A stretch of 64,000 nucleotides of DNA from a virus (Duplodnaviria; Heunggongvirae; Uroviricota; Caudoviricetes): IMG/VR virus record IMGVR_UViG_3300017650_000009, one strand, 5' to 3'. A program made the position numbers and the translations under genes. How positions within the stretch are numbered: position 1 is the first letter of the stretch; each line of letters opens with the position of its first letter. Shown piece after piece: positions 9,368 through 57,917 of this stretch. The notes beneath the pieces are model-generated. The model saw only the letters and a program-made list of their open reading frames with translations, was not told the origin of the DNA and searched no databases.

Positions 9368-11017
9368 TTAGGATTTAGATTTACGAACGTAATCTGTTAC
9401 ATCGCGTCCAATACTTTGAACTTCAACGAATTCACCCTGCTCATCATAAATTGCACGATCAATCCAATCAAGCCAACGAGTCTCACCATTGCGGGAAACC
9501 CTATATAAGATACGTTTTACATTTTGTGAGGAATTAATATCATCCAGATGTTGGAATAAACGATTATGATCACGGATATCAACAATATCCGTAAGTGTCA
9601 TTCCGGAATCAATCTTTTCTGCAAAATAATCATAGAATGTTTGGTTCATAAAATTAAGAACCAAATTTTTACCATAACAACAAACAACATCAAAAGTATT
9701 ATCAGTCATTGTTTTATATCGTTCGCGAGACAAATGTAAAAGTTGTTCCACATCCTTAAGATGCGTGATATCACGAATTACTTTAATGCGAACCTTTTCA
9801 TTCTTCCAATCAATCTCACGTTCATTTATGGCAACCTCAACTGGATTCCCACCTTTAGTCCAGAACAACGTCGTGTATGCTTGGTTCGGCGAGTTCTCCA
9901 TGTTAATGAAACGATGACGCTCTAATGGATGAATAAATGCTTCGGCTGACATCTTGCTTATCTCACTATATGAGAATCCTGTCATCTCACCTAAACGTGG
10001 ATTCCAATCCAAAAGACGCTCACCATTATGAATCATCATTGCTTCATTACTGGCTTGACCAAAGACTCTAAAATGTTCTTCAGACTCCAATAGCTCCTCA
10101 CGAGTAATGACAACATCAGTTTCATCTCTTAGAATAACAAGAATGTCTTTACCTTTTTGGATTGCACGTACTTCAAAATACGTAATCGATCCGTTGTTAT
10201 TTTCAACCTTAAGTGACCATGTTTCCAATGGATTATTCGGTGATAAACCCGCACAACCAATCTTGAATGAATCCAACTGAACAGATGTTAAGAATTCTGA
10301 TAAGTTTTTACCAATATGGGATTCCTGGATAATGGTATCAAATGCAGATGGATTGGACACATCCAAAATATTCAATTGTGTATCAATGGTAACCAAAATA
10401 TCCGGAAGAACTTGAATCATTGCATTTTGGTTCTCAAATACTTCAAGGAAACGTTGTTCGTGTTTCACGTTATCCGTAATGTCTTGAACCAAAAGCATAA
10501 CACGTGAAGTACCATCCGAATGGAGAAACTCACTTATTTTGATATTTGGGTAGAATTTTGTGCCATCAGCACGAATACCTCTGATTTCTAAGTTTCCTTG
10601 TTGGACTAACTCAAATGAAGTCAAGTTGTTCTTGTAAACACTTTTGAACTTGTCAATGGAAATCACACCACAATCGGATTCAAATAGATCTGAAAGTTTC
10701 TGGTTAAGTAAGTTAGTCTTGGAATAGCCAAAAATCTTTTCGGCTGAACCATTTGCATTTTCAAGTTTATTGTTGGGTCCAAGCAAGATTAATGCGTCTG
10801 GAATAACAAGACTTGTTGCTTCAATTTGCCTAGTGTAATCGTCGATACGATCACGCAAACTAGTCGTGACAGATTGTGCCATGCTGAGTGTACCAGCAGC
10901 GGCTTCCATAAAATCGCTATAGCTTTGTTTAGCTTTCTCGGTCTGCTCAGTTTCCTTAAGCAGTTTGTGACTTGCTTTTTTGTCCGTTTGCAGGATCTTA
11001 TTTACGAAAGACTTCAT
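9368..11017 (-). CDS. multi-PAS-domain sensor-like protein (N-terminal coiled coil, at least 3 PAS folds, no obvious output domain)
   Basis: Repeated PAS signatures, e.g. GETRWLDWIDRAIYDEQGEFVEVQSIGRDVTD and ...VRIKVIRDITHLKDVEQ. Confidence 0.6.
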   Translation of the reverse strand: MKSFVNKILQTDKKASHKLLKETEQTEKAKQSYSDFMEAAAGTLSMAQSVTTSLRDRIDDYTRQIEATSLVIPDALILLGPNNKLENANGSAEKIFGYSKTNLLNQKLSDLFESDCGVISIDKFKSVYKNNLTSFELVQQGNLEIRGIRADGTKFYPNIKISEFLHSDGTSRVMLLVQDITDNVKHEQRFLEVFENQNAMIQVLPDILVTIDTQLNILDVSNPSAFDTIIQESHIGKNLSEFLTSVQLDSFKIGCAGLSPNNPLETWSLKVENNNGSITYFEVRAIQKGKDILVILRDETDVVITREELLESEEHFRVFGQASNEAMMIHNGERLLDWNPRLGEMTGFSYSEISKMSAEAFIHPLERHRFINMENSPNQAYTTLFWTKGGNPVEVAINEREIDWKNEKVRIKVIRDITHLKDVEQLLHLSRERYKTMTDNTFDVVCCYGKNLVLNFMNQTFYDYFAEKIDSGMTLTDIVDIRDHNRLFQHLDDINSSQNVKRILYRVSRNGETRWLDWIDRAIYDEQGEFVEVQSIGRDVTDYVRKSKS

Positions 11018-15953: not shown

Positions 15954-16352
15954 ATGAGATTGTCAGAGATAATCGGTAAAGGAGGGGCCAATGGCTCCTC
16001 TTCTATCCTAGAGGGTCAAACGGATAATGCCGTACAAGCGGTTATTAAGAGTGTTTTGATACCGCTAAAATCGCAGAAGGTTGAGAAGATCACAGTCGAT
16101 CAATTGCTCGATAATATCAAAATGGCTCCTCAGCTCAAGGGTATTGATTTTGATCAAAAATACCTGATTGATATACTCGGAAAATCCAGAGTGGTAAGTA
16201 AAGTACAAGCTGATCCTGAAAATGGTGGCGCAATGACCGTGTATATGGATTTTCCAGTAGGTGATCGTCAGATAGATCAAAAACAAGCTGAGCGCGAGAA
16301 AGAAGATATTCGCAAAGCTGCGGTAAAACAGGTTAAGGATAAACTCAAATGA
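15954..16352 (+). CDS. hypothetical protein
   Basis: ORF track. Confidence 0.4.
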   Translation: MRLSEIIGKGGANGSSSILEGQTDNAVQAVIKSVLIPLKSQKVEKITVDQLLDNIKMAPQLKGIDFDQKYLIDILGKSRVVSKVQADPENGGAMTVYMDFPVGDRQIDQKQAEREKEDIRKAAVKQVKDKLK

Positions 16353-17728
16353 GTAGAAGATTGCTTGAAGGTAGAGGCATTGTAGATCACATAGATTTAG
16401 ATGGTCTTGATATTTCCATCGAAGTTGAAGCTGGCGGAACCCGTACAGGAACCAATCATAAGGGTGAACGTTGGGAAAACAAAGTTTCTGCGGCTTACGG
16501 ATATATCAAGGGAACAAATTCTCCTGATGGCGAAGCTCTTGATGTATGGGTTAAAAAGAATCCCAAAGAAGGCAAGCAAGTCTATGTTGTGCATCAGCTT
16601 ACACCAGATGGTTCCAAGTTCGATGAAGACAAAGTAATGCTTGGTTATTCTAGCCGCGATGAAGCAATCAAAGCATTTAAGGCTCACGCATTCAAGCCAA
16701 CAGAAATGTTCGGCGGTTGTTCTGAATTTCAAATGGAACACTTTAAGGTGATTGCGTATGCAGCGCGTAAGAGTTCCGTAATGATTGCATCACAGAAAAT
16801 GTATGATGATTTTGTTGAGCGTAAACTGTTACCACGTGGCATTAAAAGCCCAATTCAGCTTGCGCAAGTTGTTAAGGAAGGTGCAGATATGAATGCATTG
16901 AGAATCACCTATAAGAATCCAATCGTTGTAGAATCGGCATTTGATCTAGCCCTTCGCAACGACATTAACGTTCTTCGTACAAACTTGGAATTAGTATTTG
17001 AGAAGGTAAATGATCTCAGGGAATTCATTAGAGTTATTGATGAAACCCAAGAAGATCGTGCACATTTGGGCGACCTTCATTCGTGTTTACCTGAAAGCAT
17101 GAGTGAAATCACAGAAGCAAATGAAGCAGAAGCTCATTTGATGAGTGAGCCTGATTGCACAGTTGAAGAACCAAAAGAAGATCCAACAAATACGGATAGC
17201 CCATTCACACATACACCAATCGATGGAATTGATGAAATTCTTATTCGTGCGGGCGTGAAACGCGCGGTAGTTGAATCAACTTGGACCCCATTGGTTCATA
17301 AGACACGCGAAGTTGTTAGTGGTATCAACGAATCAACAAACCAAGCTATCGCCCAGTATATGGTTAATTACGCCGTGAAGAAGCAAAGAGCACTCATGGA
17401 GTCCGTTACTGCTTTGGATATTGAGTCGGCTACAAGACGTTTCACAAACACACTGTTGAAGTATCCAAATACACCAGCGAGTAAGATTCTCGAGGCTGTT
17501 GCGGTTCAATTAATGGGCGGAGATATCGCAGCTTTGCGTGAGCATATTGGTGCGCTTACTGGTCTATCAATTGATGAATACGCGAATGCGCTAGTAGTTC
17601 GTGAATGGGCCGGTAACAAGATCTCCAAAGAAATGTTCTCCCGTCTAATCGAATCCACTGATGCAAATTGGAATATCAATTGCCCCGATCGCGGCGAAGC
17701 TTTCAAACGCGCCGTACATTTGGTTTAA
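16349..17728 (+). CDS. protein with N-terminal inorganic-pyrophosphatase-like domain
   Basis: AAYGYIKGTNSPDGEALDVWV versus family I PPase NYGYI..T...DGDPLDVLV. Confidence 0.4.
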   Translation: MSRRLLEGRGIVDHIDLDGLDISIEVEAGGTRTGTNHKGERWENKVSAAYGYIKGTNSPDGEALDVWVKKNPKEGKQVYVVHQLTPDGSKFDEDKVMLGYSSRDEAIKAFKAHAFKPTEMFGGCSEFQMEHFKVIAYAARKSSVMIASQKMYDDFVERKLLPRGIKSPIQLAQVVKEGADMNALRITYKNPIVVESAFDLALRNDINVLRTNLELVFEKVNDLREFIRVIDETQEDRAHLGDLHSCLPESMSEITEANEAEAHLMSEPDCTVEEPKEDPTNTDSPFTHTPIDGIDEILIRAGVKRAVVESTWTPLVHKTREVVSGINESTNQAIAQYMVNYAVKKQRALMESVTALDIESATRRFTNTLLKYPNTPASKILEAVAVQLMGGDIAALREHIGALTGLSIDEYANALVVREWAGNKISKEMFSRLIESTDANWNINCPDRGEAFKRAVHLV

Positions 17729-26034: not shown

Positions 26035-26417
26035 TAACCCCCAAATGATAACCTATACGTGAGTGCATCACGTTTGCGCTCGAATGCCAAGAAGGTTCCA
26101 TAGATAGTGAACATGAATCGTCCCTCACATGATTGAAAGAACTCATATAGCTCTGCTATTTTTTGACTTGAGCTATCAGCCACATACGGAACACGAAACA
26201 CAGTCCAACGCAAATACAATTTCTTGTCAGCATATTCGGTTCTCGGTACATGAGTCGGCAAAGCCTCGATTGCACGAACAATTCGATCCCATTCATCGAC
26301 CGTCATCGTGTAATCCGAAACTTCCGGTTGCATGAAAGCCAATCCATTAATGTGCGAATACGCATTTGTCAAAAACATGGTCATGCCACACGTTAACAGG
26401 TTTTGGTACAAAGTCAA
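26034..26417 (-). CDS. FKLxFG-family protein (array member 6; TTG start or internal ATG)
   Basis: C-terminus ALTYRLSFGG. Confidence 0.4.
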   Translation of the reverse strand: MTLYQNLLTCGMTMFLTNAYSHINGLAFMQPEVSDYTMTVDEWDRIVRAIEALPTHVPRTEYADKKLYLRWTVFRVPYVADSSSQKIAELYEFFQSCEGRFMFTIYGTFLAFERKRDALTYRLSFGG

Positions 26418-26420
26418 ACA

Positions 26421-26448
26421 AAAACCCGACCTAAGCCGGGTTTAAGGG
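26421..26448 (-). terminator. intrinsic terminator of the tmRNA transcript
   Basis: Minus strand: aaacccggcttaggtcgggttttt. Confidence 0.6.
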
Positions 26449-26850
26449 ACGTTCTGTTTCCAAGTGTATCGCCCAAAACTCATCTGAGATTAAGCAGCGA
26501 GTGCCATCTCAGCAGAAACATTATCGTTTGCTGCATTTATAAAATCGAACATATATTAGTGTTTTGATTTCTAGCCTATCTCACCGAGGTAATCAAGGCG
26601 TCTGATTGGCTTTCCAGTTACCCAGTCCACACTCAAAACATTAATCGGTCGTATCTTACCGGTAACCTACTCGTACCTTTCGCTGCATAGTCGAAGCCTA
26701 TATCGCCCCCATCATAAACACAAAGCACTCTCCAAAAGCCGATCACTCGTCAATCTTCACAGATTGTCACCTTGTGTTTATGGTGGAGGCGCGGGGAACT
26801 GCCCCCCGGTCCTACACAACTATTGAGTTTGTATCAACAGTTACATGGGT
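26421..26850 (-). ncRNA. ssrA: circularly permuted (two-piece) tmRNA gene. In transcript order: acceptor piece (about 26843-26781, ending with T-arm + CGCCUCC-ACCA); intervening segment (26780-26711); coding piece (26710 to about 26449) with 5' GGGGGCG and tag ORF 26534-26490
   Basis: 5' GGGGGCGAUAUAGGCUUCGACUAUGCAGCGAAAGG (compare E. coli GGGGCUGAUUCUGGAUUCGACGGGAUUUGCGAAACC); acceptor stem GGGGGCG/CGCCUCC with G3.U70; T-arm CGGGG-GGCAGUU-CCCCG then ACCA; ...UAUAAAU GCA GCA AAC GAU AAU GUU UCU GCU GAG AUG GCA CUC GCU GCU UAA, peptide AANDNVSAEMALAA. Confidence 0.75.
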
Positions 26851-26880
26851 ATTTAAGCAGGATCGTCTGTTTTTGTCAAC
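26850..26880 (-). promoter_or_regulatory. sigma70-like promoter for tmRNA (TTGACA-17-TTAAAT)
   Basis: Minus strand: gTTGACAaaaacagacgatcctgcTTAAATAcc. Confidence 0.4.
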
Positions 26881-27042
26881 CACTTATCTCGAATATACTG
26901 GACAAATGTGCAGGAGGCTGAACCCCCATATAGGCAAACGATTGCGACTTGTAAATCCCACCAAAGGATCGCAGACATTCCGACGCCGAAACACACATAC
27001 CCGGCTACCTCTAGACAACGGAGAGCTTTTTCAAAAATTACT

Positions 27043-31133: not shown

Positions 31134-32888
31134 ATGGAAAATATCATCTTTATGGCAATTGTTGCTCTAGTAGCAATTCTAGTCGTTGGCGTTTTTGGTT
31201 TTATCGTTGCTCGGCTTTATAAGCGCGCTTCGAAGGAAACAGCTTTTGTACGTACTGGTGCTGGTGGTCAGAAAGTCGTCAAGGACGGCGGTGCCCTCAT
31301 TATTCCGGTTCTGCATGATACACTTGATATCAATATGCAGACACTCAAGCTGGAAGTTTCTCGTACTGGCCAAGACGCACTTATTACGCATGATCGTATG
31401 CGTACGGATGTTACCGCAACATTCTTCGTTCGTGTCAAGCCGGATAATGATGCAATTGCACAGGCCGCACAGACCCTTGGTCGCCGGACTCAGAACCCAG
31501 ACCTTCTCAAGGCTGTTATTGAAGATAAGTTCATCGATGCTTTGCGTTCGGTTGCTTCTTCGATGGAACTGAAGGACTTGCATGAAAAGCGTTCGGACTT
31601 CGTGCAGAAGGTTAAGACCACTGTTGAAGAAGATCTGAAGACTAATGGTCTCGAACTTGAATCGGTCTCTTTGACTCGTTTGGATCAGACGGATCAGAAG
31701 TTCTTGAATCCAAACAATGCGTTCGATGCTGAAGGTCTCACCAATCTTGCAAAGATCACGCAGGAAAAGGCTCGCGAACGTAACGAAATCGAGCAGACCG
31801 CTCGCGTTGCTATTGAGAAGCGCAACTTCGAAGCGAACCAGGAATCGCTCGCGATCCGCCAGTCTGATGAGTTCGCCCGTCTTGATCAGGAACGTCAGGT
31901 TGAAACTCGCAAGGCCGAGCAGGAAGCTCAGCTTGCCCAGCAGCGCGCCGATCGCAAGCGTGAAGCCGATGTTGCGGCAATCGAAGCTGAAAAGCAAACT
32001 GAACTTGCTCGTACAACGTCAAACCAGGAAACTGCATTGGCTCGCACCGAAGCAAATAAGCGTCAGAAGGAAGCTGAAATTACCGCAAACCAGCAGCTTC
32101 GTATTGCTGAGCAGAACCAACAGATTGCTTTGAACGCTAAGTCTGAGGAAGAATCCAAGTCTCGTGCTATCGCGGATACTGAACGTGCAAATGCTGTTGC
32201 GGCTGCAGAATCGGTTAAGACTGCAGAAGCTGTCGCAACGGCGGAACGTTTGAAGCGCGTTGCGATCATCGAAGCCGAACAGGAAGCTGGCCGCAAGGCT
32301 ACCGAAATTACGGTTCAGGCAAAGGCTGAATTCGAAGCTTCGGATCTTCGTACAAAGGCACGTCTCAAGGACGCCGAAGCACGTGAGCGTGAGCTTACTG
32401 TTGAAGCTGAAGGTAAGCTCAAGATCAACGAAGCTGAAAACTCCTTGAGCCCTGAACAGATTGCACTTCGTCTTCGTACAACTGTTGTGCAGGCACTTCC
32501 TGGTATTCTCGAGCAGATGGTTGCTCCAATGAAGGCAGTCAAGGACGCACGTATCGTTACGATCAACGGTACGGGTGTTGGTGGTGCGGTCGCAGGTGGC
32601 ACTACTGGTTCGAATACTACTTCGGTTCCAGAGCAGCTTACCAATTCGTTGCTCAACTACCGTTCACAGGCCCCACTTGCTGATGCTCTTGGTAAGCTTG
32701 TTGGTATGAACCTCAATGGTTCGCTCAACGATATCATCCCTGATGATCTTCTAAGCGGTGAAGATGGTTTGCTTGCTCCGGTAGCGGCTGTGGCTCAGGT
32801 TGCTGACACAAAGACCAATACCGTACAGAAGGAAGACCAGGAACTGAAGAATATTCAGCACTTGGCTGGTATCGACACTAAGAAGTAA
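31134..32888 (+). CDS. flotillin-like SPFH/band-7 protein (FloT/YqiK-like)
   Basis: N-terminal TM, SPFH core (YKRASKETAFVRTGAGGQKVV...), long Ala/Glu-rich coiled coil with EA repeats. Confidence 0.75.
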   Translation: MENIIFMAIVALVAILVVGVFGFIVARLYKRASKETAFVRTGAGGQKVVKDGGALIIPVLHDTLDINMQTLKLEVSRTGQDALITHDRMRTDVTATFFVRVKPDNDAIAQAAQTLGRRTQNPDLLKAVIEDKFIDALRSVASSMELKDLHEKRSDFVQKVKTTVEEDLKTNGLELESVSLTRLDQTDQKFLNPNNAFDAEGLTNLAKITQEKARERNEIEQTARVAIEKRNFEANQESLAIRQSDEFARLDQERQVETRKAEQEAQLAQQRADRKREADVAAIEAEKQTELARTTSNQETALARTEANKRQKEAEITANQQLRIAEQNQQIALNAKSEEESKSRAIADTERANAVAAAESVKTAEAVATAERLKRVAIIEAEQEAGRKATEITVQAKAEFEASDLRTKARLKDAEARERELTVEAEGKLKINEAENSLSPEQIALRLRTTVVQALPGILEQMVAPMKAVKDARIVTINGTGVGGAVAGGTTGSNTTSVPEQLTNSLLNYRSQAPLADALGKLVGMNLNGSLNDIIPDDLLSGEDGLLAPVAAVAQVADTKTNTVQKEDQELKNIQHLAGIDTKK

Positions 32889-32903
32889 TTCTTAGTTTTA
32901 CGG

Positions 32904-32930
32904 AAAAGGGGACTTCGGTCCCCTTTTTGT
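32904..32930 (+). terminator. rho-independent terminator
   Basis: aaggggac-ttcg-gtcccctt + tttg. Confidence 0.6.
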
Positions 32931-32961
32931 TTGACTTTTTACCAAAACAAAGCTAAAAGGG

Positions 32962-33690
32962 ATGAAATCGAAGGAGATACCTGTGGGTTATATTAAGCAA
33001 AAAGGATTAAAAATGAACCAAGCCATGAACATCATTTATAGCTTGGTTGCCGGCTTTAGTGTCGGGGTATCAATCTTCTTCGGTGTGTTTCTTACATTCG
33101 GTGTGGGCATTGGCCCCTTTATGATTGCAGCTATGGGCGGTGCAATCGGTATGATTCTCACCACTGCTTATGTTTGTGATAAACTCCATAACTTGCAATG
33201 GAATAAAGAACGTAAAGAAAAAGATCTCGCACTAACGTACCAGGAGTTCAATGGACTCGAAGGTCTTTCGGGTGTGGATGTGGAAGCATTCCGAAACACG
33301 ATTCTAGAAGCTCGCAAAAAGCAATCAAAAATCCAATCCATGTATGTGCATTTGCATTTGCAAAAGGATGCCAAAATCATTCTAGCAGCATCAGCTATTG
33401 CAATTTTCATGGGAGAAATTCTAGCGTATGTGAAGAAAGAACCACAGAACTATCGTGCTGTTCACAAATGGCTTGATGTATATGCGGATCAAACAATTAA
33501 CATTTTGGAACAATATGCGGATATTCACGTAGATGCGCGTGATAAGGTTCGTGACAAATTCACCGATACCATTGTGCTGGTTAAAGATAACTTGCAATCG
33601 ACTATGGAATCGCTTACAGATAACACGATTGACAATTTACAAATTGATCTGGAACTTCTTCAGGATCAAATGAAACAGTACACGCGATAA
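32962..33690 (+). CDS. membrane protein (2 TM) with cytoplasmic helical domain
   Basis: Hydrophobic segments near residues 20-70. Confidence 0.4.
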   Translation: MKSKEIPVGYIKQKGLKMNQAMNIIYSLVAGFSVGVSIFFGVFLTFGVGIGPFMIAAMGGAIGMILTTAYVCDKLHNLQWNKERKEKDLALTYQEFNGLEGLSGVDVEAFRNTILEARKKQSKIQSMYVHLHLQKDAKIILAASAIAIFMGEILAYVKKEPQNYRAVHKWLDVYADQTINILEQYADIHVDARDKVRDKFTDTIVLVKDNLQSTMESLTDNTIDNLQIDLELLQDQMKQYTR

Positions 33691-33700
33691 GGAGCACGAA

Positions 33701-34789
33701 ATGAAAGTAACCAAAATCAAAGACACTGAGCTGGATTTGCTACCGATCACAAGTGATCCCAATGGTATCGATTTATCGAAGGTTCCAGCAATCCGTGATG
33801 GTCTTGATATTACGAAAACCAACGATATTATTGGTTTTGGTTCCGGTGCTCAGAAGAAGGTTACCGACATCAGCCGCAAAATGCTTGAAGGCGTGAAGTC
33901 CAAGGATACTGGCGTTGTCGGTGGGCTGCTCGTCGATATGGTTACATCTATGCGTGGCCTTGATTTCGACAAAGTCAAGCCTGGATCAAAGGTTGGATTC
34001 CTCGGCAAGCTTTTGGGTCGTTTGACTCCAGTGGCCAAGTTTATTCAGCAGTACGAGGGTATCTCTTCACACATTTCAGTTGTGGTTGCTGATCTTGAAA
34101 CCAACAAAGTCGCCCTTATGCGCGACGTGAAGGTTCTTGATCGTCTTTATGCGACGACACTTACGTATTTCCATGAACTTGCCGCCTACATTGAAGCGGG
34201 GACACAAAAGCTTGAACAGCTTGATAAAACGGAAATCCCAGCCCTGAAAGCTATAGCTGAAAAGTCCGGGGATATGCTGGATGCACAGAAAGTTCAGGAC
34301 CTTGTTCATGCACGTGATATGCTTGACCGAAAGGTGCACGACCTAAAGCTAACACGCCAAGTCGTCATGCAAAGCCTACCAAGTATTCGCATGGTTCAGC
34401 AGAACGATACTGATTTGATTGAAAAGATCAATTCACAAATCACCAACACCATTCCGGCATGGGAACAGCAATTGGCCCTTGCTGTTGCTATGTGGCGTTC
34501 AGCTGATGCGACAAAAACAACTCGTGCGGTTTCGGATTATTCCAATGAATTGATCAAGCAAAATGCAAAAATGCTGCGCCAGTCAAATGCGGAAGCACGT
34601 ACGGAAATCGAACGTGGCATCTATGATGTTGAAGCAATCAAGGCAGCAAATGAAGAATTGATTGCAGCCATTGGTGAATCCATTGCTATCGCTAATGCAG
34701 GCAAAGAAAAGCGCTTGCAAGCATCAGCAGAACTCATCGAGTGTGAGAATAAGCTTCGTGATGTCTTAGCGAGCGCTTCTACTAATTAA
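33701..34789 (+). CDS. TelA/KlaB-like toxic-anion-resistance family protein (tentative)
   Basis: 362 aa, helical; conserved-looking N-terminal region GFGSGAQKKV...; size and context (with SPFH/NfeD) like Bacillus YceH. Confidence 0.45.
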   Translation: MKVTKIKDTELDLLPITSDPNGIDLSKVPAIRDGLDITKTNDIIGFGSGAQKKVTDISRKMLEGVKSKDTGVVGGLLVDMVTSMRGLDFDKVKPGSKVGFLGKLLGRLTPVAKFIQQYEGISSHISVVVADLETNKVALMRDVKVLDRLYATTLTYFHELAAYIEAGTQKLEQLDKTEIPALKAIAEKSGDMLDAQKVQDLVHARDMLDRKVHDLKLTRQVVMQSLPSIRMVQQNDTDLIEKINSQITNTIPAWEQQLALAVAMWRSADATKTTRAVSDYSNELIKQNAKMLRQSNAEARTEIERGIYDVEAIKAANEELIAAIGESIAIANAGKEKRLQASAELIECENKLRDVLASASTN

Positions 34790-34796: not shown

Positions 34797-34826
34797 CCTA
34801 AGCCGTGGGATTACCACGGCTTAGGA
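34797..34826. terminator. bidirectional hairpin between convergent genes
   Basis: cctaagccgtgg-gatta-ccacggcttagg. Confidence 0.5.
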
Positions 34827-37800
34827 GTTTTAGGTGGTTCATTCGGATCCGGTGTTGATGGAGGAAGAATAGTACATTCACCAATCGTACGAGCATCCTT
34901 ATATACACAAATCATTGTACCACCACGAGGAGGCAAGAAGCTCTTTCCAACACTAGATAGTGCATCAGTAGTTTTACTTTTAGCTCCCTCAGGCGATTTT
35001 CCAGTTTCAGTATAATGAATCTTAAACGTGCGGATTTTTTCCTCACCCGTATAGATATCGTATGCTCGAGCCTGGAACGTAATAGTTGTTGGGCCCTCAG
35101 GTGGAGTTGTATTGATAGTTCCACCATTACGTTTTTCACGAGCATTGTTAACCATGTCCGGAGACAAGAACGTCAACTCACCCTGGAACCAAGCGTCCGC
35201 AGCTTTTGATATTGGTTGCATATTTTCGTCTTTCTCTCCAGTTTGGAAGAAGAATTTCCATTCATCCATATGCTTGCGAATATCTAGCACACCATATTGT
35301 GCACCCGCCATTGGAACCACCGTGCTATCACGCAGTGGGTTTCTCACTCGACGATCCACATTACCCGATACATATCCAACTGAATCATATTCATCCCAAA
35401 TTTTGGTACTTTTTGGTTTACGAATTTTATCGTTATTGAATAGTTCCCAATTCATATATTCCGGTGTTAGCTTTGGTCTCGAAGCCGCAGCAAATGCACC
35501 ATAATAATCTGTTCCCGGGAATTGAACAATATAATTTCCTAATTGATATGGATCAGTTGATGTTGGTTTAAAATATTGATTTGTAAACATTGCATCTTCA
35601 ACGTTATCCATAGGAGATGTTAGGAACAAATTACCACGCCCACAATTGGCATCTGCATTCATTGCTTTTAGAATACTTGTAGTATAGGTTGTTCCATTCG
35701 GATCACGCTGAGAAATCAAACATTTCGGAGCCGTTAATAGCCAACTAGTACGCTCCTTGCCGGGGGAAACAAATGGATCAAATCTACTATACACTTTTGT
35801 ACCAATGGTATTCATAATGTCAATACGAACATAAAGACGATTGGTATAAAATTTGATAGTGAATTTTTGTTTGAATGGCATCCAAAATTCATTTGGCCCA
35901 ATCCAAGTGAAAGGATCGACATTATAAGCTTCTGTATGTGGGTTTGGTTGTGGAATATATGTTTCGTCAGGCTGTTTAACCCAAACATTATTGGATTCCT
36001 TATCAAAAACCACACGCGGTGGCGGCCAAGGCCATTCCTCTCTTGTATTTTCGATAGCAGGAAGGAAATCATATTCCTTGATAATTGGATCCAATTTACC
36101 ATCCCATGTGCCCTTTTCAGGTGCGAGTTGACCTGCGGCATCACTAATGAAAGTTCCATTAGGTGTTCGATAACAAGTACGTGGATCTCCAGTTGGAGGA
36201 GGAGCATCCCAACCCACAGTTGGCTTACCAACACGAACGCTATAATTATTTGCTACAATCTCACCATAGCTTGCTGGTTGATTAATCTTTGTGTTCTTAT
36301 CATTGTAATAGATGAAATCTTTAAGTTGAGATCCGTTGACTTCAATCGAATCAACACGGATGAAACGACGACTTGCACCCTTCACTTTATAGTTTGTCTG
36401 GACAATACCAATTGTAGTATTTGGACCCAAAGTACCCTCATATGTGAAGATGAATTGCTTTGAACCAACTTGATCAGCTTTAAGTCCATCGAACGATTTC
36501 TTTTCCAATCGTTTATTATCAACAATAAGGGCAAACTCAGGAACTCCGTCATATTCCCAACCAGTAATTTTTGCATAGATTACATTTACATTGGTTTTGA
36601 TATTCGGGACACTAGTTACCACTTGACATGTACCCTCAGGTGGCATGTCGATAATGAATGGAAGGATTTCCCATGTCAACACACCGTCACGCTTTACTGC
36701 CACTACAGTTACTGGTTGCTCAGCATTCGGGACGTGTATGATTTCGCCTTCTTCTTCAGGTTCAGGCAAAGTACGACCTTCAATTTCAGCGAATAGCCCG
36801 CACTTGCCCTTGAGCTGCCATTGACCATCAAACCCCATGACATACGAACATCCAGTAAGCGGGATAACATTATAATTATCATCAACTGGTGGGTGTTCAA
36901 TTGGCTTCAAGTGAACACGAACAATAAGATCACCCAACACACATTTGTTCTTTTGCGTACATACGTCGAACATAACGTGTTCCCAAATCGGAGTCTTATC
37001 TTCCTCACAATGATGAACTAACTTTACACGGCCTGCATTGACATCGGCTTGCGTAAACTGTGGCGGGACAACTTCAATGTGAGGATTGCCGTTTGTAAAC
37101 TCGAGTGTTTTTTCTATATTCCAAGTATATGTAATTTGATCCGGATTTGAACCAAACTCAACGGTATGTTTGAGGTTATCCTCAGTAAGAGTTATCTCCT
37201 CACATTCATTCATCGACGCTGTATTATTAACGACTTCGGGATAAGGCCATTCACGAACCTTAACATCGAAACGACCCCAAGTACATTTGTTGACATTTGC
37301 ACATGCATTGAAGAAAAAGCTAACTAGCTCATCAGGACCTATAAATTGCCCTTCAATGCAAACTTTTCCCTCATCAAGATCTGAATGCGTAAATGTATCT
37401 CCTTCTTTCATTGGTGCGCCATTTAGCTTATAAATGGCTCTGGCTGGAAATTTCTCTGAACCTTTATCAACATGTTCAATAGTGTATGTAATTGGAAAAC
37501 GTTCAAACAATGGATCGGCACGGGGATCAGTAGGTTCTTCACCCTCTGGTGGCAATACCTTAAAATTCAAATTTGTTAAACGAGCATTATTCTGAGATAG
37601 TGCACCAAAACCATATTGAGATTGACCTGCGAACGGTCCACTCAAAGTATAAGTTAGAAGGGTTGAATCATCAAGCTCTGTGCTTCCAAATTGACTACAA
37701 CGCGCTGTAAGGGTATTTCCCTTACGTATGATTTCAACAGCCGTTTCTCCTAAAGATGGCCAAGATTCATTCTTTGTATTGTTATGGTGATTTGGCGCAC

Positions 37801-38689
37801 GGGACGAACCATCAACGACTGTAGACCAAGTTGAACCATTATAGTTGAAAATAAACCAACTTGGATTTCCTAGGTTACCACCATTTGAATTCAAACCACC
37901 AGAACGACCAACACCAATAAAATTTGGTTTTCCGTCGATTTCCACATAAGCGGCGATCATGAAAATCATGTCATCGTCTTTGGCTGTGGAACTCATTACG
38001 CTAGAGAAGCTAAAACGATCCGCGGTAAGCCAACCAACCGCACCAGTCATTTCCTCACTATTGCGAGTCAACAACATTCCTCTGTTGCCCAATTCGGGAT
38101 CATGCATCCAGTAATATGCGGGATCACTTTGTGGTATAGTCTGTCCTAGATCATAAACACGATCACCAGCAAAACGTTTCCAATAAGCAAAATTTTGATT
38201 CTCTGGTGATGGAGCATAGATCGCAGGATCCTGATCAAATCGTTTGATTTCTTCGGAGTCCGAGCTATAAAACAGGTGAGCACGGGAGAAACAAAGTGTT
38301 TCATCTTCCATGATCGTTATTTTTTTGTTGATAATTTCCTTCGGGAAAGGAATACAAAGGATCGTAATACCAAATGTGAAGACACCGTCCTCTGGAATGT
38401 TTGCGGGTGGCAAACAGGTCGAACGAGGGGTTTCAGCAGTTAGGATTTCTGTTTCAGAAATAGGCACAACATACTTGAAACTATCCGACATAATCTCGGC
38501 TTTCAAGTCAACTTTTGTATTTTGGTATTGAAAACGTCCAGCGCCCACATCTTCATGTGTGAAACGTTGGCCTACTTTCATGATTTCGCCATTTAGAAGC
38601 AAATTACCTTTTGTGGGCAATGTTCGCAACTGATATAAACCACGTTCTGCGTAAGCTTCGACGATAATATGTTCGTTCAACAAACTCAT
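34811..38689 (-). CDS. giant structural protein (1292 aa) with CSPG/cadherin-like repeats; probable fiber/baseplate/adhesin
   Basis: Repeats FTHEDVGAGRFQYQN, FTHSDLDEGKVCIEG, FTQADVNAGRVKLVHH. Confidence 0.55.
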   Translation of the reverse strand: MSLLNEHIIVEAYAERGLYQLRTLPTKGNLLLNGEIMKVGQRFTHEDVGAGRFQYQNTKVDLKAEIMSDSFKYVVPISETEILTAETPRSTCLPPANIPEDGVFTFGITILCIPFPKEIINKKITIMEDETLCFSRAHLFYSSDSEEIKRFDQDPAIYAPSPENQNFAYWKRFAGDRVYDLGQTIPQSDPAYYWMHDPELGNRGMLLTRNSEEMTGAVGWLTADRFSFSSVMSSTAKDDDMIFMIAAYVEIDGKPNFIGVGRSGGLNSNGGNLGNPSWFIFNYNGSTWSTVVDGSSRAPNHHNNTKNESWPSLGETAVEIIRKGNTLTARCSQFGSTELDDSTLLTYTLSGPFAGQSQYGFGALSQNNARLTNLNFKVLPPEGEEPTDPRADPLFERFPITYTIEHVDKGSEKFPARAIYKLNGAPMKEGDTFTHSDLDEGKVCIEGQFIGPDELVSFFFNACANVNKCTWGRFDVKVREWPYPEVVNNTASMNECEEITLTEDNLKHTVEFGSNPDQITYTWNIEKTLEFTNGNPHIEVVPPQFTQADVNAGRVKLVHHCEEDKTPIWEHVMFDVCTQKNKCVLGDLIVRVHLKPIEHPPVDDNYNVIPLTGCSYVMGFDGQWQLKGKCGLFAEIEGRTLPEPEEEGEIIHVPNAEQPVTVVAVKRDGVLTWEILPFIIDMPPEGTCQVVTSVPNIKTNVNVIYAKITGWEYDGVPEFALIVDNKRLEKKSFDGLKADQVGSKQFIFTYEGTLGPNTTIGIVQTNYKVKGASRRFIRVDSIEVNGSQLKDFIYYNDKNTKINQPASYGEIVANNYSVRVGKPTVGWDAPPPTGDPRTCYRTPNGTFISDAAGQLAPEKGTWDGKLDPIIKEYDFLPAIENTREEWPWPPPRVVFDKESNNVWVKQPDETYIPQPNPHTEAYNVDPFTWIGPNEFWMPFKQKFTIKFYTNRLYVRIDIMNTIGTKVYSRFDPFVSPGKERTSWLLTAPKCLISQRDPNGTTYTTSILKAMNADANCGRGNLFLTSPMDNVEDAMFTNQYFKPTSTDPYQLGNYIVQFPGTDYYGAFAAASRPKLTPEYMNWELFNNDKIRKPKSTKIWDEYDSVGYVSGNVDRRVRNPLRDSTVVPMAGAQYGVLDIRKHMDEWKFFFQTGEKDENMQPISKAADAWFQGELTFLSPDMVNNAREKRNGGTINTTPPEGPTTITFQARAYDIYTGEEKIRTFKIHYTETGKSPEGAKSKTTDALSSVGKSFLPPRGGTMICVYKDARTIGECTILPPSTPDPNEPPKTPKPW

Positions 38690-39852
38690 AGGATTTGAGT
38701 CTCCGATTGTAAGCCAGCACTATTGGTCCCCGTTTGTGTTGTAATCAAAGCGTATCTACGTGTAGCGCTAAGACCGGTTACCGGATCAATGGCTGTGACC
38801 GTGAACAAATAGCGTCCCGGCTCTATTGGAAGCTTCCATGGTTGTGTACCAGCTTGTGATAACGGAATACGATATTGCGTACCCACATATCCTATGCTAG
38901 AAACAGCAACACCAGTAGGCAACCCGCCATCCCAATAAAACTGCTCGTGCAAATTCTTATACTGTATTAATTTATCAAATCCCAAACCACGTTCCGGATC
39001 ATCCAGCGGCGCACCATCAGCAATCGCATAGTTGGACCAATCAATAATGCCAGTACTCGGCGTGCTTGCGTTTCGTGGTGATATATCGGATCCACCTCTA
39101 AGAGACCACAATGCATTTGGTTTGTTTGTTTGGAATGTCCAAGTGAATACTGAATCGATGCGTGCATAGATTACGTTATCACCAATTTGTTTGAAATCCG
39201 CATGAATCTCAACATCAATAACTGTAGGTCCAACACATTGATTTGTTTTTGTGCAAACCATCAAACTAATTGTATCCCATGCAGGGGCCATTCCAGTAGC
39301 AACATAACGAATTGAGTTAGAGTTTACATCTGCTTGGGTGAACATAGTAGTCTTCTTACCACGTAGGCTCAAATAACCATTCGTGAGTGGGGTATTCAAT
39401 TTATAGATAAGATCGTTTGGACTAACACCATCTAGTTCCGCATGTATTACAGTATTATCCAAAACCGTAGACTTCTCCTCAACCACATTGATTTTGTTCT
39501 CAATTAGTGTGATCGTAGGAGGTGTCATTTTATTAATGCGGATCGAAAACTCAAATATTCCATCCTCAGGAACTTCAATATCACGATCAGGCAAGCATGT
39601 ATTATAGGAATCAGCCGTTATATTTCCAAGTCCATACTTGTATAGGTTATATTTGAAGGAATCCTCTAGAAACTCAACATTGTCGGGTACTTTGGTCGTA
39701 CTTACGAATTTGATTTGCTCATCGAAAATATCCTGTTGTGAAAATTTAGATCCCACTTGTAGTCGGGTTTTACCCTTAACAAGATAACCATATTGGGGCA
39801 ACGTGAGGAGCTTAAAAAGCCCCTCCGTCGGAATCATAGGATTAACAACCAT
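38686..39852 (-). CDS. structural protein (388 aa) with CSPG/cadherin-like repeats
   Basis: FSQQDIFDEQIKFVST, FTQADVNSNSIRYVATG; ATGA overlap with neighbours. Confidence 0.5.
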   Translation of the reverse strand: MVVNPMIPTEGLFKLLTLPQYGYLVKGKTRLQVGSKFSQQDIFDEQIKFVSTTKVPDNVEFLEDSFKYNLYKYGLGNITADSYNTCLPDRDIEVPEDGIFEFSIRINKMTPPTITLIENKINVVEEKSTVLDNTVIHAELDGVSPNDLIYKLNTPLTNGYLSLRGKKTTMFTQADVNSNSIRYVATGMAPAWDTISLMVCTKTNQCVGPTVIDVEIHADFKQIGDNVIYARIDSVFTWTFQTNKPNALWSLRGGSDISPRNASTPSTGIIDWSNYAIADGAPLDDPERGLGFDKLIQYKNLHEQFYWDGGLPTGVAVSSIGYVGTQYRIPLSQAGTQPWKLPIEPGRYLFTVTAIDPVTGLSATRRYALITTQTGTNSAGLQSETQIL

Positions 39853-39853
39853 A

Positions 39854-42800
39854 TTAACCCTCCTTTGTGCGGAAGTCTACGTTCCATACAGCCGGAGTAG
39901 GACCTACAGCACAATTCTCAGTTACTAGGATGTTAACGTATTGGCTTGTTAGTCCAGTATTGAATGTATATTCTAGTTCACCCGCAGTATTTGAACGGCA
40001 ACCCGAATTTACATGCACTGTACGATTTTGATCCTGAACAAAGATACTAGCATAACCAATATCAACTTTGAACTTGAGAACCATAGTCGAACCTGGCTTC
40101 TTCAAGAAAATAGTCTTCGATGCTTTGTTTGTAACTGGATCAGTATCACTTGGGCTGATAACTTCGCCTTCTTCCCAGTTGTCTGTTTCACCTGGAGTTT
40201 CGGCATCGTCTGGGTTAGGATCATCGACGTTTGCGTAATCCATATCAACATCACACATCTGCAAGTAATCATATGTAATTGCACGAGTTTCTAGCTCAAA
40301 TAGTACAAGCTGAGTCTGGAAACAAATCCAAGGTGGGTTGTTCACTTGTGTGAATTTAATATCGAATGTGCCTGAACCTGAGAAAGGTATTGAGTTAACC
40401 TCAAAATCAAAAGAATCAGGATCCGTACGATACGTGATACTAGTGTATGTGATTACGTTCGCATAGATGTCAGCAAGGGTAAATGTATCACCTTCATTGA
40501 GCACTACGCCGTTACGCTCGAGTACACCACGAGAAACACCACGAGTAATTGTGAAAATCATATCTTCACGATTAAAACTCGTACGCAAGTTCAACACGTT
40601 GAGTGACACACCTGTGATTGCTCGTTTGGTACAAGGCGGAACAACTAGACCCTTGTTGACCAACTCTGGCGGTGGTGGTGGAATAATACGAATTGGGAAT
40701 GTTTCCAAAGGCAACACATTTCCACCTGCATCTGTGAGCGAGAAGTCAAAGGAGTCCAAAAGTGCTCCTTCTTCTGTTTCACAATACGATAGGAAACCAA
40801 ATCTAATATCCTGATACGTGAATACATCGCCTTCCTTCAGTGGCACATCCTTTAGAGAAAGTGTACCATAAAGAGGAAGTTTGAGTATCTGTAACTTCAA
40901 TTGATCATCTGTGGATTCACGATCATTGATATAGATATTTGAGCCAGTAATTTGCTTACAAGTTAGCTCGCCTAGCACCAATTCGTTCATTACCAATTCA
41001 GGCGGACGATCCGTCATGATAAGTTCAATAAGGAAGTTATCCGTAATCTTTTCAATTCCATCAGTAACTTCAAAAGTAAAGAAATCAGTGCTCTGAACCA
41101 TTTGGTCCGGATCAGGAACATATGTTAGGCGTCCACTATTGATATCTTCTTGTGTTAGCTTTGTGCCAATTTCAATCTCAACAGTTCCCAACATAAGCTT
41201 ACCAACTTTTGGTAAAGAACGGATTGTATAAACCAGTTCAGCGTCGGTAGTAACGGAACCACTTGTAGCCAACAACAATGAGTTATCGATGGTTCCAGTT
41301 TCAGATTGCTCAACGACTAGTTTTTCGTTTTTCAATTCGAGTCCAGGAAGGAAAAACACATGGAATTCAATTTCTCTAGCACAGAATCCATTTGTCACCG
41401 ATAGCTCAAATACATCCTCTTCTGGAGTGTCACGTTCGTGTTGGTATGAGAGTAACATCAACAGGATATCATTACTTGTGAATGTTTCATCACGGCCAAT
41501 ACGTTTGCCATCGACTTTGAGATATCCAAAATTAGGAGTTTTGGTTACCGTAAACACGAACTCACTAGGATCAACACCTTCATTGTATGCGAGCAAATTA
41601 AGCTCAGTGATAGCCTTTTCCTTGGTGAAACTCATTGTGATTGGATTATAAATGATTTCAGGGCAAAGCAATGGTGGTGGTGGAAAAATAAACAACATCG
41701 CACCAGCAATACGGGACGAAAATTCATCATACATTACAAAGTGGACATAATCATTTACTACGTTTCGGTCGGTGACTTCGGCCACATAACGGAACGTATT
41801 GAGCTGCCAATCAGGTTGGTTGAATTTCTGCCCAACAAACGCCGGCTCACCATTGATATAGAATGTACCATATAGTGGTAGCTCGGTAATTTCCAACCAT
41901 GCATCCTCAAGTGGACCATCATCATCTGTAAAATTTACGTCTTCGACATCGAAGTTTACTTCACCATTTCGTGGTGGAGAATGTGGTTTATTAACTGTCA
42001 AATACGGAGGTTTATTATTCTCGTTCGTAATAACAATACCAGCGCCTTTACGTACTTCATTCATTTCGTCTCGAACAATGAATTCAAAACCATCAGTCCA
42101 AGGTGTGTGAACAGTACAATCATGTGTATATGTGAGTTTTGAGTCCAATACATCCTGATATGTAAACTTGTCACCGATTTTAACCGGTTTGCCATCCAAT
42201 AATAGTTCACCATGTGTGGGCAATACTGTAACTTCAATTTCGAGTTTATCTGGCTTCAAACCCTCTGGGTCACGAATGTAAATGTTTTCTTCAGTGAACA
42301 CACCGGATTCGCAACGTTCAACTTCCAAAATAACAGTATCAACAATTGGAGGTTCATTTGGAACTAGTTCCAATATGTATTTGAAGTCAGTTACGGTAGA
42401 AGTTTCACGAGTGTGATACGCATCCATAATAATTTCATCGAATGGTGTCTTTGAGCAATCATGTGTGAAACTTAGGCGACCAGCAGTAATATCAGCTAGA
42501 ACCCATGTATCTCCGACTTTCATTGGAGAATTATTCTTCTTTAAGATACCATGCAATGGAAGTTTCTTCAGAACAAAAGTAATTGGTTCATCTGGATCAT
42601 CTTCATCAACGGCCCATAGCGAATCCTGAGAGAATATTAATTCCTCACACTGCTTGATTTTACGTGGAGAGCCCTGGATCTGAATCAGTTTATCAACAAG
42701 ACGAATACGAATTTCAAGTGTATAAACGGGTGCCTTATCCTCCGGTTCACCAACTACAACACCAGACCAGTTATTCTTCGCATCACGTACTTTGAATACC

Positions 42801-43432
42801 AAATAGTCGAGTTCTTCCTCACGACTACCATTATGTCGGTATTCTAATCGACCTTTATCAATATCATCTTGTGTGAATTCGGTGCCAGGACCAATGCGCT
42901 TGCCCTTCAAGTAGATATCACCGAATTGTGGCCATGCTTGCACTCGCATAAAGATCGCACTTGGAGGGTCCTTAATATCGGTGAAGTGGATATTAACGTT
43001 TCCAATAACTTTATTTTCACTAATACCAACGTAAAGCGGAAGTGTACCACCTTCTGGTGCTCGATCGGGAAAGTTATATCGAATAGTGAGAGTAACGTTT
43101 ACTGGGCGGCTACTCGGATCATTTAGATCCTGAATTACTAGGTTTACCTTAATATACTCTTTAGTGACGTTAGACGGATCAGCAACGTAACGAATAACAC
43201 CGGAATTGATTTCAGCTTGTGTGAAAACAACTGGCTGTAATGTCGTAGTATTTCGTACAAAATGTCCAATGTCTGGATCCAAACTTCTCATCGTATATTG
43301 GATTTTATTGGGTGCACCATTACCACCAGTCGGCAACGTAGATACCGCATTCAAGTTTATTTGTGTTATAGGAGTGTTTGTTGCGGGGTTAATACCCAGC
43401 TCTTTAACCGTCACATTTGAGTTAATTGCCAT
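39854..43432 (-). CDS. giant structural protein (1192 aa) with about 9 CSPG/cadherin-like repeats
   Basis: Periodic x-GD-x-F-T-x-x-D-[IL]-x-x-G-x-[LI]-x-Y-x-H motifs about 100 aa apart. Confidence 0.55.
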   Translation of the reverse strand: MAINSNVTVKELGINPATNTPITQINLNAVSTLPTGGNGAPNKIQYTMRSLDPDIGHFVRNTTTLQPVVFTQAEINSGVIRYVADPSNVTKEYIKVNLVIQDLNDPSSRPVNVTLTIRYNFPDRAPEGGTLPLYVGISENKVIGNVNIHFTDIKDPPSAIFMRVQAWPQFGDIYLKGKRIGPGTEFTQDDIDKGRLEYRHNGSREEELDYLVFKVRDAKNNWSGVVVGEPEDKAPVYTLEIRIRLVDKLIQIQGSPRKIKQCEELIFSQDSLWAVDEDDPDEPITFVLKKLPLHGILKKNNSPMKVGDTWVLADITAGRLSFTHDCSKTPFDEIIMDAYHTRETSTVTDFKYILELVPNEPPIVDTVILEVERCESGVFTEENIYIRDPEGLKPDKLEIEVTVLPTHGELLLDGKPVKIGDKFTYQDVLDSKLTYTHDCTVHTPWTDGFEFIVRDEMNEVRKGAGIVITNENNKPPYLTVNKPHSPPRNGEVNFDVEDVNFTDDDGPLEDAWLEITELPLYGTFYINGEPAFVGQKFNQPDWQLNTFRYVAEVTDRNVVNDYVHFVMYDEFSSRIAGAMLFIFPPPPLLCPEIIYNPITMSFTKEKAITELNLLAYNEGVDPSEFVFTVTKTPNFGYLKVDGKRIGRDETFTSNDILLMLLSYQHERDTPEEDVFELSVTNGFCAREIEFHVFFLPGLELKNEKLVVEQSETGTIDNSLLLATSGSVTTDAELVYTIRSLPKVGKLMLGTVEIEIGTKLTQEDINSGRLTYVPDPDQMVQSTDFFTFEVTDGIEKITDNFLIELIMTDRPPELVMNELVLGELTCKQITGSNIYINDRESTDDQLKLQILKLPLYGTLSLKDVPLKEGDVFTYQDIRFGFLSYCETEEGALLDSFDFSLTDAGGNVLPLETFPIRIIPPPPPELVNKGLVVPPCTKRAITGVSLNVLNLRTSFNREDMIFTITRGVSRGVLERNGVVLNEGDTFTLADIYANVITYTSITYRTDPDSFDFEVNSIPFSGSGTFDIKFTQVNNPPWICFQTQLVLFELETRAITYDYLQMCDVDMDYANVDDPNPDDAETPGETDNWEEGEVISPSDTDPVTNKASKTIFLKKPGSTMVLKFKVDIGYASIFVQDQNRTVHVNSGCRSNTAGELEYTFNTGLTSQYVNILVTENCAVGPTPAVWNVDFRTKEG

Positions 43433-43539
43433 GTTTTTTGATTACTCCAAGGAAGCGCTTTTTCTTCCTATTTATGTTGTTTTGGACTTGACATTTTTTG
43501 CTTTCCTGTTACGTTTGTAGAAACAATGGAGAAGATCGT

Positions 43540-52784: not shown

Positions 52785-53011
52785 TATTGAGCCTTATTAT
52801 TTTTTATTTTTTAATTATGGGTTTTAACACCGAAACTATTTACAACATGAGCTTAAATCGGATAGCTTCTTGTTTTGTCTCAAATAACAAATAGAATCCA
52901 CCATCATCTATATACCAAGTAATTATTTTGGGCTCGATATTCAATTCAACACAAACTTCAAAAACTCTAGCTTCGTCATATTTGGTCAAATCCAAATAAA
53001 GCTTGTATCCT

Positions 53012-53263: not shown

Positions 53264-53264
53264 G

Positions 53265-53738: not shown

Positions 53739-53749
53739 TTTGTCTCCTT

Positions 53750-57882: not shown

Positions 57883-57917
57883 TCCGGTCGACCGCAAATA
57901 TAAAGGAGAATTTTTCG

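Follow-up and report, generated by a model that had tools for sequence, protein, structure and literature searches.

A circularly permuted (two-piece) tmRNA gene in a T4-like jumbo phage lineage related to phages Phosso and Atu_ph07

The window analyzed here is a stretch of 64,000 nucleotides (nt) from a tailed phage (Caudoviricetes; IMG/VR record IMGVR_UViG_3300017650_000009). On its minus strand, it carries a complete circularly permuted gene (ssrA) for a two-piece transfer-messenger RNA (tmRNA). Judged from sequence comparisons, this is very probably a functional ssrA of the alphaproteobacterial type, long carried by jumbo phages of a lineage to which Sinorhizobium phage Phosso and Agrobacterium phage Atu_ph07 are related. 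A permuted ssrA had been proposed in a preliminary description of the window. All elements listed there were found at their assigned positions upon reading of the sequence, and the gene is borne out by ARAGORN, by Rfam, by covariation among homologous loci and by its phage context. The elements of the gene, and the type of data on which each is based, are as follows.

26851-26879, minus strand: sigma-70-like promoter, consisting of TTGACA (26879-26874), a 17-nt spacer and TTAAAT (26856-26851) (sequence; recurrence in relatives).
26781-26844, minus strand: acceptor piece, 64 nt, with the 5' strands of P2a, P2c and P2d, the element CUGUUGAUACA, the T arm, the acceptor 3' strand and ACCA (Rfam alignments, helix table, pair counts).
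26808-26792, minus strand: T arm, CGGGG/GGCAGUU/CCCCG (sequence; Rfam).
26791-26785, minus strand: acceptor 3' strand, CGCCUCC (sequence).
26784-26781, minus strand: ACCA (sequence).
26711-26780, minus strand: intervening segment, 70 nt, closed by the inverted repeat AUAAACACAA/UUGUGUUUAU (10 bp) (folds, covariation).
26422-26710, minus strand: coding piece, from G1 (26710) to the terminator (ARAGORN, Rfam, helix table, co-fold).
26710-26704, minus strand: 5' strand of P1, GGGGGCG (sequence; co-fold).
26646-26661, minus strand: P3 hairpin of pseudoknot 1 (PK1), consisting of CGGU, the loop AAGAUACG and ACCG (Rfam structure).
26555-26643, minus strand: 89-nt insertion, a lineage-specific self-closed hairpin domain (insertion relative to both Rfam models).
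26547-26551, minus strand: 3' strand of P4 of PK1, UGUUC, which pairs with the P3 loop, G..ACG/GA (pairing table).
26490-26534, minus strand: tag frame, with the resume codon GCA (26534-26532), the peptide AANDNVSAEMALAA and the stop codon UAA (26492-26490) (ARAGORN, Rfam alignment).
26484-26512, minus strand: P5 hairpin, CUGAGAU/AUCUCAG, within which the tag ends and the stop codon is located (folds of all homologues).
26474-26447, minus strand: 3' hairpin of the coding piece (fold).
26443-26422, minus strand: stem of an intrinsic terminator, followed by a T run (terminator scan).

ARAGORN, which had been suggested as a check, makes a single gene call in the 64 kb. This is a permuted tmRNA at 26399-26873 (minus strand), with the same tag as read previously, AANDNVSAEMALAA. 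The suggested covariance-model search resulted in end-to-end matches to two Rfam models, both above their gathering thresholds: tmRNA_permuted (RF04321; 90.4 bits in the whole window and 98.2 bits in the sub-region, threshold 47) and alpha_tmRNA (RF01849; 73.2 bits, threshold 50). E-values of these matches range from 4e-16 to 5e-20. The circular permutation is directly evident from the order of the parts, as the T arm, the acceptor 3' strand and ACCA (end at 26781) are located upstream of G1 (26710), with 70 nt in between. The acceptor stem consists of seven pairs (CGCCUCC/GGGGGCG). Its third pair is U.G (G3.U70) and it is followed by A73-CCA, which together are the marks of alanine identity. 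The preliminary description had placed both ends, the 70-nt segment and the G3.U70 pair correctly. When the two pieces are folded together, they form a 7-bp intermolecular P1, including G3.U, and the T arm.

For comparative analysis, nine loci were used, namely the window and eight homologous tmRNA genes in phage or metagenome contigs. Seven of the homologues were retrieved from IMG/VR and from metagenome contigs by pattern scans with the lineage-specific sequence of the acceptor piece: L002 (on a 480-kb contig), L023 (on a 333-kb contig), L105, L107, L112, L113 and L114. The other one (L001) is an unannotated permuted tmRNA gene in the genome of Phosso (PV764938.1, 6012-6614, plus strand; 113 bits to RF04321 and 108 bits to RF01849). 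Five of the nine genes were missed by ARAGORN (Phosso, L023, L107, L112 and L113), in the case of Phosso probably because of its intervening segment of 410 nt. Four candidates (L104, L106, L108 and L109) fit the longer pattern but hold no tmRNA. The 15-mer CGAGTAGGTTNCCGG has 102 matches in IMG/VR, and all of them except L023 are chance matches without a tmRNA. When the L023 gene was compared with deposited phages, only short matches to the T arm were obtained (in Caulobacter phage CcrPW and an Alcaligenes phage), and Atu_ph07 gave no match.

A MAFFT alignment of the loci was out of structural register between subclades and was abandoned; helix strands were extracted by an anchored procedure instead. 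In the resulting helix table, P1, the T arm, P2a, P2c, P2d, P3 and the closing stem of the intervening segment are kept by compensatory changes. Standard pairs occur in 96.6% of the cells, and both sides have changed in 20 of 37 pairs. Among 500 shuffles, none matched the observed pairing values, and controls with slid partners were 38-51% paired. G3.U70 is invariant in all nine loci, and acceptor pairs 5 and 6 covary. The T arm (five pairs, 7-nt loop) has six distinct stem sequences among the homologues, each of them fully paired. Pairing is complete (100%) in P2a, P2c and P2d, and 7 of the 11 pairs of these helices show double changes; P2b of the Rfam model is unsupported in this phage lineage.

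The element CUGUUGAUACA is present in the acceptor piece of all nine phage loci and in none of the 120 bacterial loci listed. This argues that the gene is an old resident of the phage lineage rather than a recent capture. It has to be considered that ssrA is frequently used by temperate phages for integration, with fragments of it being carried along (noted in PMC9004378), and the gene could then be host DNA, i.e., the result of a chimeric assembly, a recently acquired fragment of a bacterial ssrA or an attP remnant. The gene is, however, complete and not a 3' fragment, and its neighbourhood is as in Phosso. Also, no bacterial tmRNA is more than weakly similar to it at the nucleotide level (best match 80 bits), its G+C content is 44-45% (bacterial median 57%), and three assemblies agree. 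Taken together with the distribution of CUGUUGAUACA, this makes the probability of host DNA practically negligible.

The promoter (TTGACA-17-TTAAAT) is present as described previously. The identical layout of the -35 hexamer, 17-nt spacer and -10 hexamer, at an equal distance to the first RNA nucleotide, is found in seven of the nine loci (the window, L001, L002, L107, L023, L113 and L112). A simple strict promoter scan of the window does not list it because the scan rule demands an A at position 2 of the -10 hexamer. Transcription likely starts at G26844, which is 6 nt past TTAAAT. At the other end of the gene, the intrinsic terminator was also as predicted.

The stem which closes the intervening segment has 10-14 bp and, in predicted folds, stacks on the acceptor stem. 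It covaries in seven of nine homologues. The segment is expected to be removed from the precursor. Of the features seen here, the covarying closing stem is the one that speaks for the predicted cutting of the precursor into two paired RNAs. Skipping-rope RNA (RF02924) was considered as the content of the segment in the window and was rejected, since there is no covariance match at E<=10 and the consensus misfits the segment. Upon a search of positions 26380-26950, no Rfam family at all matched the intervening segment or the 89-nt insertion at E<=10.

For the tag, ARAGORN and the Rfam alignment agree with the position that had been assigned to the resume codon and reading frame (26534-26490). 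The frame has an Ala resume codon, an ALAA end and a UAA which is inside P5 (26512-26484). Its codons are GCA GCA AAC GAU AAU GUU UCU GCU GAG AUG GCA CUC GCU GCU UAA. The GCA is doubled at the start of the tag (26529-26534), which corresponds to one inserted codon relative to both Rfam models and is otherwise seen only in L113. The first GCA is the likely resume codon, because it is this one which, in all loci, comes immediately after the conserved UAAAU. The tags of the nine loci are as follows.

Window: AANDNVSAEMALAA
Phosso (L001): ANDNVSTKVALAA
L107: ANDNTSASKVALAA
L002: ANDNSVASQPVALAA
L113: AANDNAPFEMALAA
L114: ANDNSAYVELALAA
L023 and L112: ANFIASNDNEFVAMEMAA
L105: AITASNDNVPYSAMKIAA

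All nine tags contain NDN and end with xAA, and those of the window and L113 share the ending EMALAA. A scan for ANDN-x5-ALAA-stop, with one genome per species, gave at least 120 loci. Those listed are nearly all from Alphaproteobacteria, with Rhizobiaceae, Brucella, Devosia, Rhodobacterales, Caulobacterales, Hyphomonadaceae and Acetobacteraceae among the groups represented. The window tag had been likened to that of Caulobacter (PMC1233412), to which it is indeed identical in 8 of 13 residues, but the Agrobacterium/Rhizobium tag ANDNNAKEYALAA (given for A. tumefaciens in PMC12493166) is nearer, with 9 of 13 identical residues. The tag class and the match to the alpha_tmRNA model, together with the fact that the nearest cultured relatives of the phage infect Sinorhizobium and Agrobacterium, support an alphaproteobacterial host, as had been suggested from the sequence.

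It had also been suggested that the tag is perhaps an altered degron which retargets ClpXP substrates, so that tagged proteins would escape host proteases or be handed over to the phage ClpX. In favour of this, the central residues (VSAEM) differ from those of known host tags, and the tag has one additional Ala codon at its N-terminus. In addition, the phage has its own ClpX, in which the RKH loop reads RKN. However, ANDN and ALAA are the standard ends of alphaproteobacterial tags, which points to a host-like degron. At the five central positions, bacterial tags differ from one another as much as they differ from those of phages. ClpX of the phage is a standard equivalog that has both the GYVG and the IGF loop. 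A modified degron is thus quite unlikely, and this part of the preliminary description is not upheld.

PK1 was defined by comparison of bacteria and phages. In P3, a U-A pair is changed to C-G in L002. P4 is formed between the loop (G-N-(U)-A-C-G/C) and a downstream 5-mer. It covaries in relatives and bacteria by a change from A-U to U-A, with AAGAUACG being combined with UGUUC and AAGUUACG with UGUAC. Both strands of P3 and of P4 are kept in the window, and the insertion falls between them, in loop 3. The stem sequences of P5 differ between loci, with pairing being retained in six of nine homologues.

The preliminary description had remarked that the coding piece is unusually long (about 175 nt to the resume codon). 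This length is a genuine outlier: in the window, 176 nt separate the 5' end from the resume codon, compared to 86-87 nt in the eight phage relatives and to a median of 84 nt (maximum 89 nt) in 107 bacterial alphaproteobacterial tmRNAs. The excess is due to a single 89-nt hairpin inserted in loop 3 of PK1, which is absent from all these 8 phage and 107 bacterial comparators. The hairpin is closed by two arms (26645-26633 and 26567-26555; 12 of 13 positions paired) and has a predicted fold of -23.6 kcal/mol (z -2.2). The whole gene, including the insertion, is found in three independent assemblies, two of which are identical to the window while one has three single-nucleotide polymorphisms (SNPs); therefore, the insertion is not an assembly artefact. 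Only one of the SNPs is inside the insertion (26559 C to U), and it turns the only A.C mismatch of the closing stem into A-U. Since the insertion folds on itself and the PK1 strands remain adjacent, PK1 can still form. The insertion is most likely a tolerated or accessory expansion which leaves the pseudoknot intact. That it might be a copy of the intervening segment was ruled out in both orientations. It is not repeated in the window, and exact 25-mers of it do not occur in IMG/VR. Because no copies were found in any of these, a mobile-repeat origin is not supported.

The insertion could also be taken as a sign of decay. In this case, it would have disabled trans-translation and the locus would be heading for loss. 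It fits such a view that the insertion is unique among all comparators and is located in PK1, near the resume codon. Yet promoter, terminator, P1 with G3.U70, T arm, P2, P3/P4, tag frame and P5 are all intact, and the insertion is self-closing and keeps the PK1 strands adjacent. It is carried by three assemblies, and its only SNP repairs the stem, which argues for constraint rather than for decay. We consider a decaying or inactive copy to be highly improbable.

The 3' hairpin of the coding piece (26447-26474) has a conserved loop, YUUGGAAACAGRA. The AACAG of this loop is complementary to the CUGUU of the invariant acceptor element (26830-26840), so that the two pieces might be in tertiary contact here. 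Since neither side varies, covariation is uninformative. Three relatives are devoid of the 3' hairpin.

The genes in the window are those of a T4-like jumbo phage, as they include a DnaB-like helicase, a tail-collar fibre and both subunits of a T4-type topoisomerase II. Also encoded are an SPFH/flotillin protein, TelA, cadherin-like giant proteins, a nucleotidyltransferase of the CCA-adding type, and ClpX followed by IF-3. The tmRNA region is syntenic with that of Phosso, the common order being SPFH protein, small genes, an unannotated gap, small genes and tail fibre. When 14 kb around the gene were compared with deposited phages by megablast, no match was obtained; thus, the window is not a deposited phage. 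A tblastn search with the neighbouring 149-aa protein against phages also gave no match. The ClpX and TelA proteins of the window are recorded in metagenome assemblies only, the longest contig having 434,884 bp. ClpX shows 73.7% sequence identity to that of Phosso (469 kb) and 60.9% to that of Atu_ph07 (490 kb). Three of the encoded proteins are given here as context of the tmRNA gene.

56638-57882, plus strand: ClpX, with a zinc finger, the GYVG pore loop and the IGF loop for ClpP docking (Pfam, NCBIfam, translation).
57879-58439, plus strand: IF-3, directly after ClpX (Pfam).
43498-45132, plus strand: nucleotidyltransferase of the CCA-adding or poly(A)-polymerase family (Pfam PolyA_pol).

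That the phage encodes ClpX had been noted before. It is a full NCBIfam ClpX equivalog (581.6 bits, cut-off 359), encoded about 30 kb from the tmRNA gene. The nucleotidyltransferase scores 189.9 bits against the NCBIfam CCA tRNA nucleotidyltransferase, which is under the cut-off of 290. The topoisomerase II genes (51432-55652) adjoin those for ClpX and IF-3, and the same arrangement is described for phage AP-J-162.

With E. coli SmpB as query, no SmpB homologue was detected in the 64-kb window. The same query against the phage collection matched 68 records, with neither Phosso nor Atu_ph07 among them. The tmRNA presumably depends on host SmpB. Given that no SmpB of the phage was detected, its tmRNA must vie with that of the host for host SmpB, and it might be a decoy that soaks up SmpB and alanyl-tRNA synthetase (AlaRS) of the host and thus shuts down or hijacks host trans-translation. 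There is a precedent, since the tmRNA of mycobacteriophage DS6A, which consists of the tRNA-like domain only, inhibits tmRNA (cited in PMC4131195 and PMC11915505). For a decoy, however, the tRNA-like domain alone would suffice, while the nine loci have also conserved PK1, the resume context, a 14-codon frame (with NDN and (L/M/I)AA as its ends) and P5 including the stop codon. A pure decoy or competitor is thus very unlikely.

A functional two-piece tmRNA would act as follows, by analogy to that of Caulobacter. Host RNA polymerase would transcribe the gene early in infection into a single precursor. The long stem of the intervening segment would present the tRNA-like domain to host RNase P and 3' processing enzymes, and the resulting 64-nt acceptor piece and a coding piece of roughly 290 nt would be joined by P1 and P2. 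The tmRNA would be charged by host AlaRS and brought by host SmpB to stalled ribosomes on broken mRNAs; an abundance of these is to be expected in infection and under RNA-targeting defences. The ribosome would be released and the nascent chain would gain (A)AANDNVSAEMALAA. Degradation of the tagged chain may then be by ClpXP, with phage or host ClpX and host ClpP. The net effect would be that translation capacity is maintained, which fits with IF-3 in the neighbourhood and with the enzyme of the CCA-adding type.

Several points weigh against a functional tmRNA. The gene is described here at the level of its sequence, sequence comparisons and predicted folds. Folding of the two pieces together, which had been proposed as a check, gave the tRNA-like P1 and T arm but did not recover P2 in the minimum free energy co-fold, so that the support for P2 is comparative. 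In the anchored strand parse, pairing was one of the criteria by which bulge and loop lengths were set, and this causes a small bias in the pair counts. The insertion is located 20 nt upstream of the resume codon, in the region for frame selection, and could impair function. Finally, the negative result for SmpB covers 64 kb of a genome of roughly 435 kb.

Two-piece tmRNAs in phages are a known kind, in spite of the novelty that was implied in the preliminary description, and the gene in the window is picked up by standard tools. In a survey of 18,146 phage genomes, 402 had a tmRNA; 53 of the 133 unique structures were two-piece, and 50 of these 53 were marine or aquatic (PMC9004378). Two-piece tmRNAs are reported for OM43 phage Melnitz and its relatives, and for pelagimyophages, the ssrA of Melnitz being described as under a glutamine riboswitch (PMC9004378). 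Like the window, Melnitz represents a lytic T4-like phage with a complete permuted ssrA of the alpha type. Similar roles are proposed for both, namely that the hijacked translation machinery is kept working or that proteins are tagged. Melnitz is, however, from another phage lineage and environment, whereas the lineage of the window includes soil rhizobiophages. Also, the Rfam search of the gene region in the window gave no riboswitch match. One-piece tmRNAs occur in mycobacteriophages (Bxz1 group) and Bacillus phage G (PMC4131195), and huge phages carry tmRNAs (PMC7162821). As in the window, ssrA is phage-borne in these phages and found among translation genes, mostly without an SmpB gene, but their tmRNA genes are not permuted.

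The closest known cases are Sinorhizobium jumbo phages. For AP-J-162, a relative of Atu_ph07, one tmRNA is listed in Table 1 of the respective report, without analysis (PMC11242549). According to its description, clpX is beside the genes for IF-3 and topoisomerase, as in the window (PMC11242549). Phosso shares the phage lineage, gene neighbourhood and tmRNA lineage with the window but differs by its 410-nt intervening segment, by the tag ANDNVSTKVALAA and by the lack of a PK1 insertion. With the alphaproteobacterial two-piece tmRNA (as in Caulobacter crescentus), the window gene shares the order of acceptor piece, intervening segment and coding piece, and likewise G3.U70, the alpha-type T loop, P2, PK1, an ANDN...AA tag and a P5 that holds the stop codon. 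The window gene is distinct in being phage-borne and in its lower G+C content. Particular to it are the acceptor element of its lineage (CUGUUGAUACA), the long intervening segment (70 nt, bacterial median 32 nt), the doubled Ala codon and, inserted in PK1 (loop 3), the hairpin of 89 nt.

As judged from nine covarying loci, a jumbo-phage lineage of soil and aquatic alphaproteobacteria appears to have a ribosome-rescue RNA of its own and to depend on the host for SmpB, which lends support to the idea of large phages investing in sustained translation. Phage tmRNAs with long intervening segments are under-annotated, because ARAGORN missed more than half of the genes of this lineage, including that in the deposited Phosso genome. 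The tag class and the type of matching model provide a clue to the host of an uncultivated 435-kb phage. The PK1 hairpin and the RNAs in the intervening segments of relatives bear on the question of how much extra RNA the tmRNA scaffold can carry.

Intervening segments in the lineage range from 70 to 410 nt. In three relatives, the segment is filled by a skipping-rope RNA, an orphan motif of Rfam (L023, 559-651; L113, 2761-2853; L114, 432-524), with full-length matches of 46.8-47 bits (threshold 36.7). Its outer stem is the closing stem of the intervening segment, and tRNA-type processing of the tmRNA would thus release skipping-rope RNA. In the literature searched, no report of a skipping-rope RNA inside a tmRNA intervening segment was found. 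In L112, the 79-nt segment (from CCACCA to GGGGGCG) has a stem of 13-14 bp around three hairpins. It contains a canonical T arm (GAAGG UUCGAGU CCUUC) and resembles a tRNA-like cloverleaf, with an "anticodon" loop of just 3 nt; ARAGORN finds no tRNA in it. The segments of L001 (6080-6490) and L107 (268 nt) have a module of about 130 nt in common, ACGAGGCCUUC...GCAGCGUAGUCGUUCA.GUGACGGCG. In predicted folds of these two, the 3' end of the acceptor piece and the 5' end of the coding piece are each in a hairpin of their own (15-18 bp) with internal sequence, and these ends do not pair across the segment. In a paper on the tmRNA database, a tRNA inside the intervening segment of a permuted tmRNA is called "a unique feature" (PMC11915505), and given this remark, the contents of the segments in this lineage may merit a separate look.

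It is tempting to speculate that the ssrA of this lineage does more than provide a rescue RNA, as a processing cassette that houses separate structured RNAs in its non-tmRNA parts. This is based on the skipping-rope RNA, tRNA-like cloverleaf or module of about 130 nt in the segments of relatives, and on the fact that in the window a different slot, loop 3 of PK1, has gained an 89-nt hairpin, apparently under structural constraint. If so, this hairpin could be a protein-binding or regulatory domain, or it could be a second excised segment, which would result in a three-piece tmRNA. We regard the cassette as unlikely, and a two-piece tmRNA that functions in ribosome rescue is the preferred reading.

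Some other genes in the window are unusual phage cargo. A 549-aa protein has several PAS domains (9368-11017, minus strand). The SPFH/flotillin gene is followed, two genes later, by that for TelA, with an open reading frame for a 242-aa protein in between (31134-34789, plus strand). Three consecutive genes code for cadherin-like repeat proteins of 1292, 388 and 1192 aa (34811-43432, minus strand). Pfam assignments further include a protein with an InPase (inorganic pyrophosphatase) domain (16349-17728, plus strand), a 6-pyruvoyl-tetrahydropterin synthase (QueD-like; 47585-48034, plus strand), a weak match to HNH endonucleases (58971-59564, plus strand) and a collagen-repeat protein (61384-63222, minus strand).

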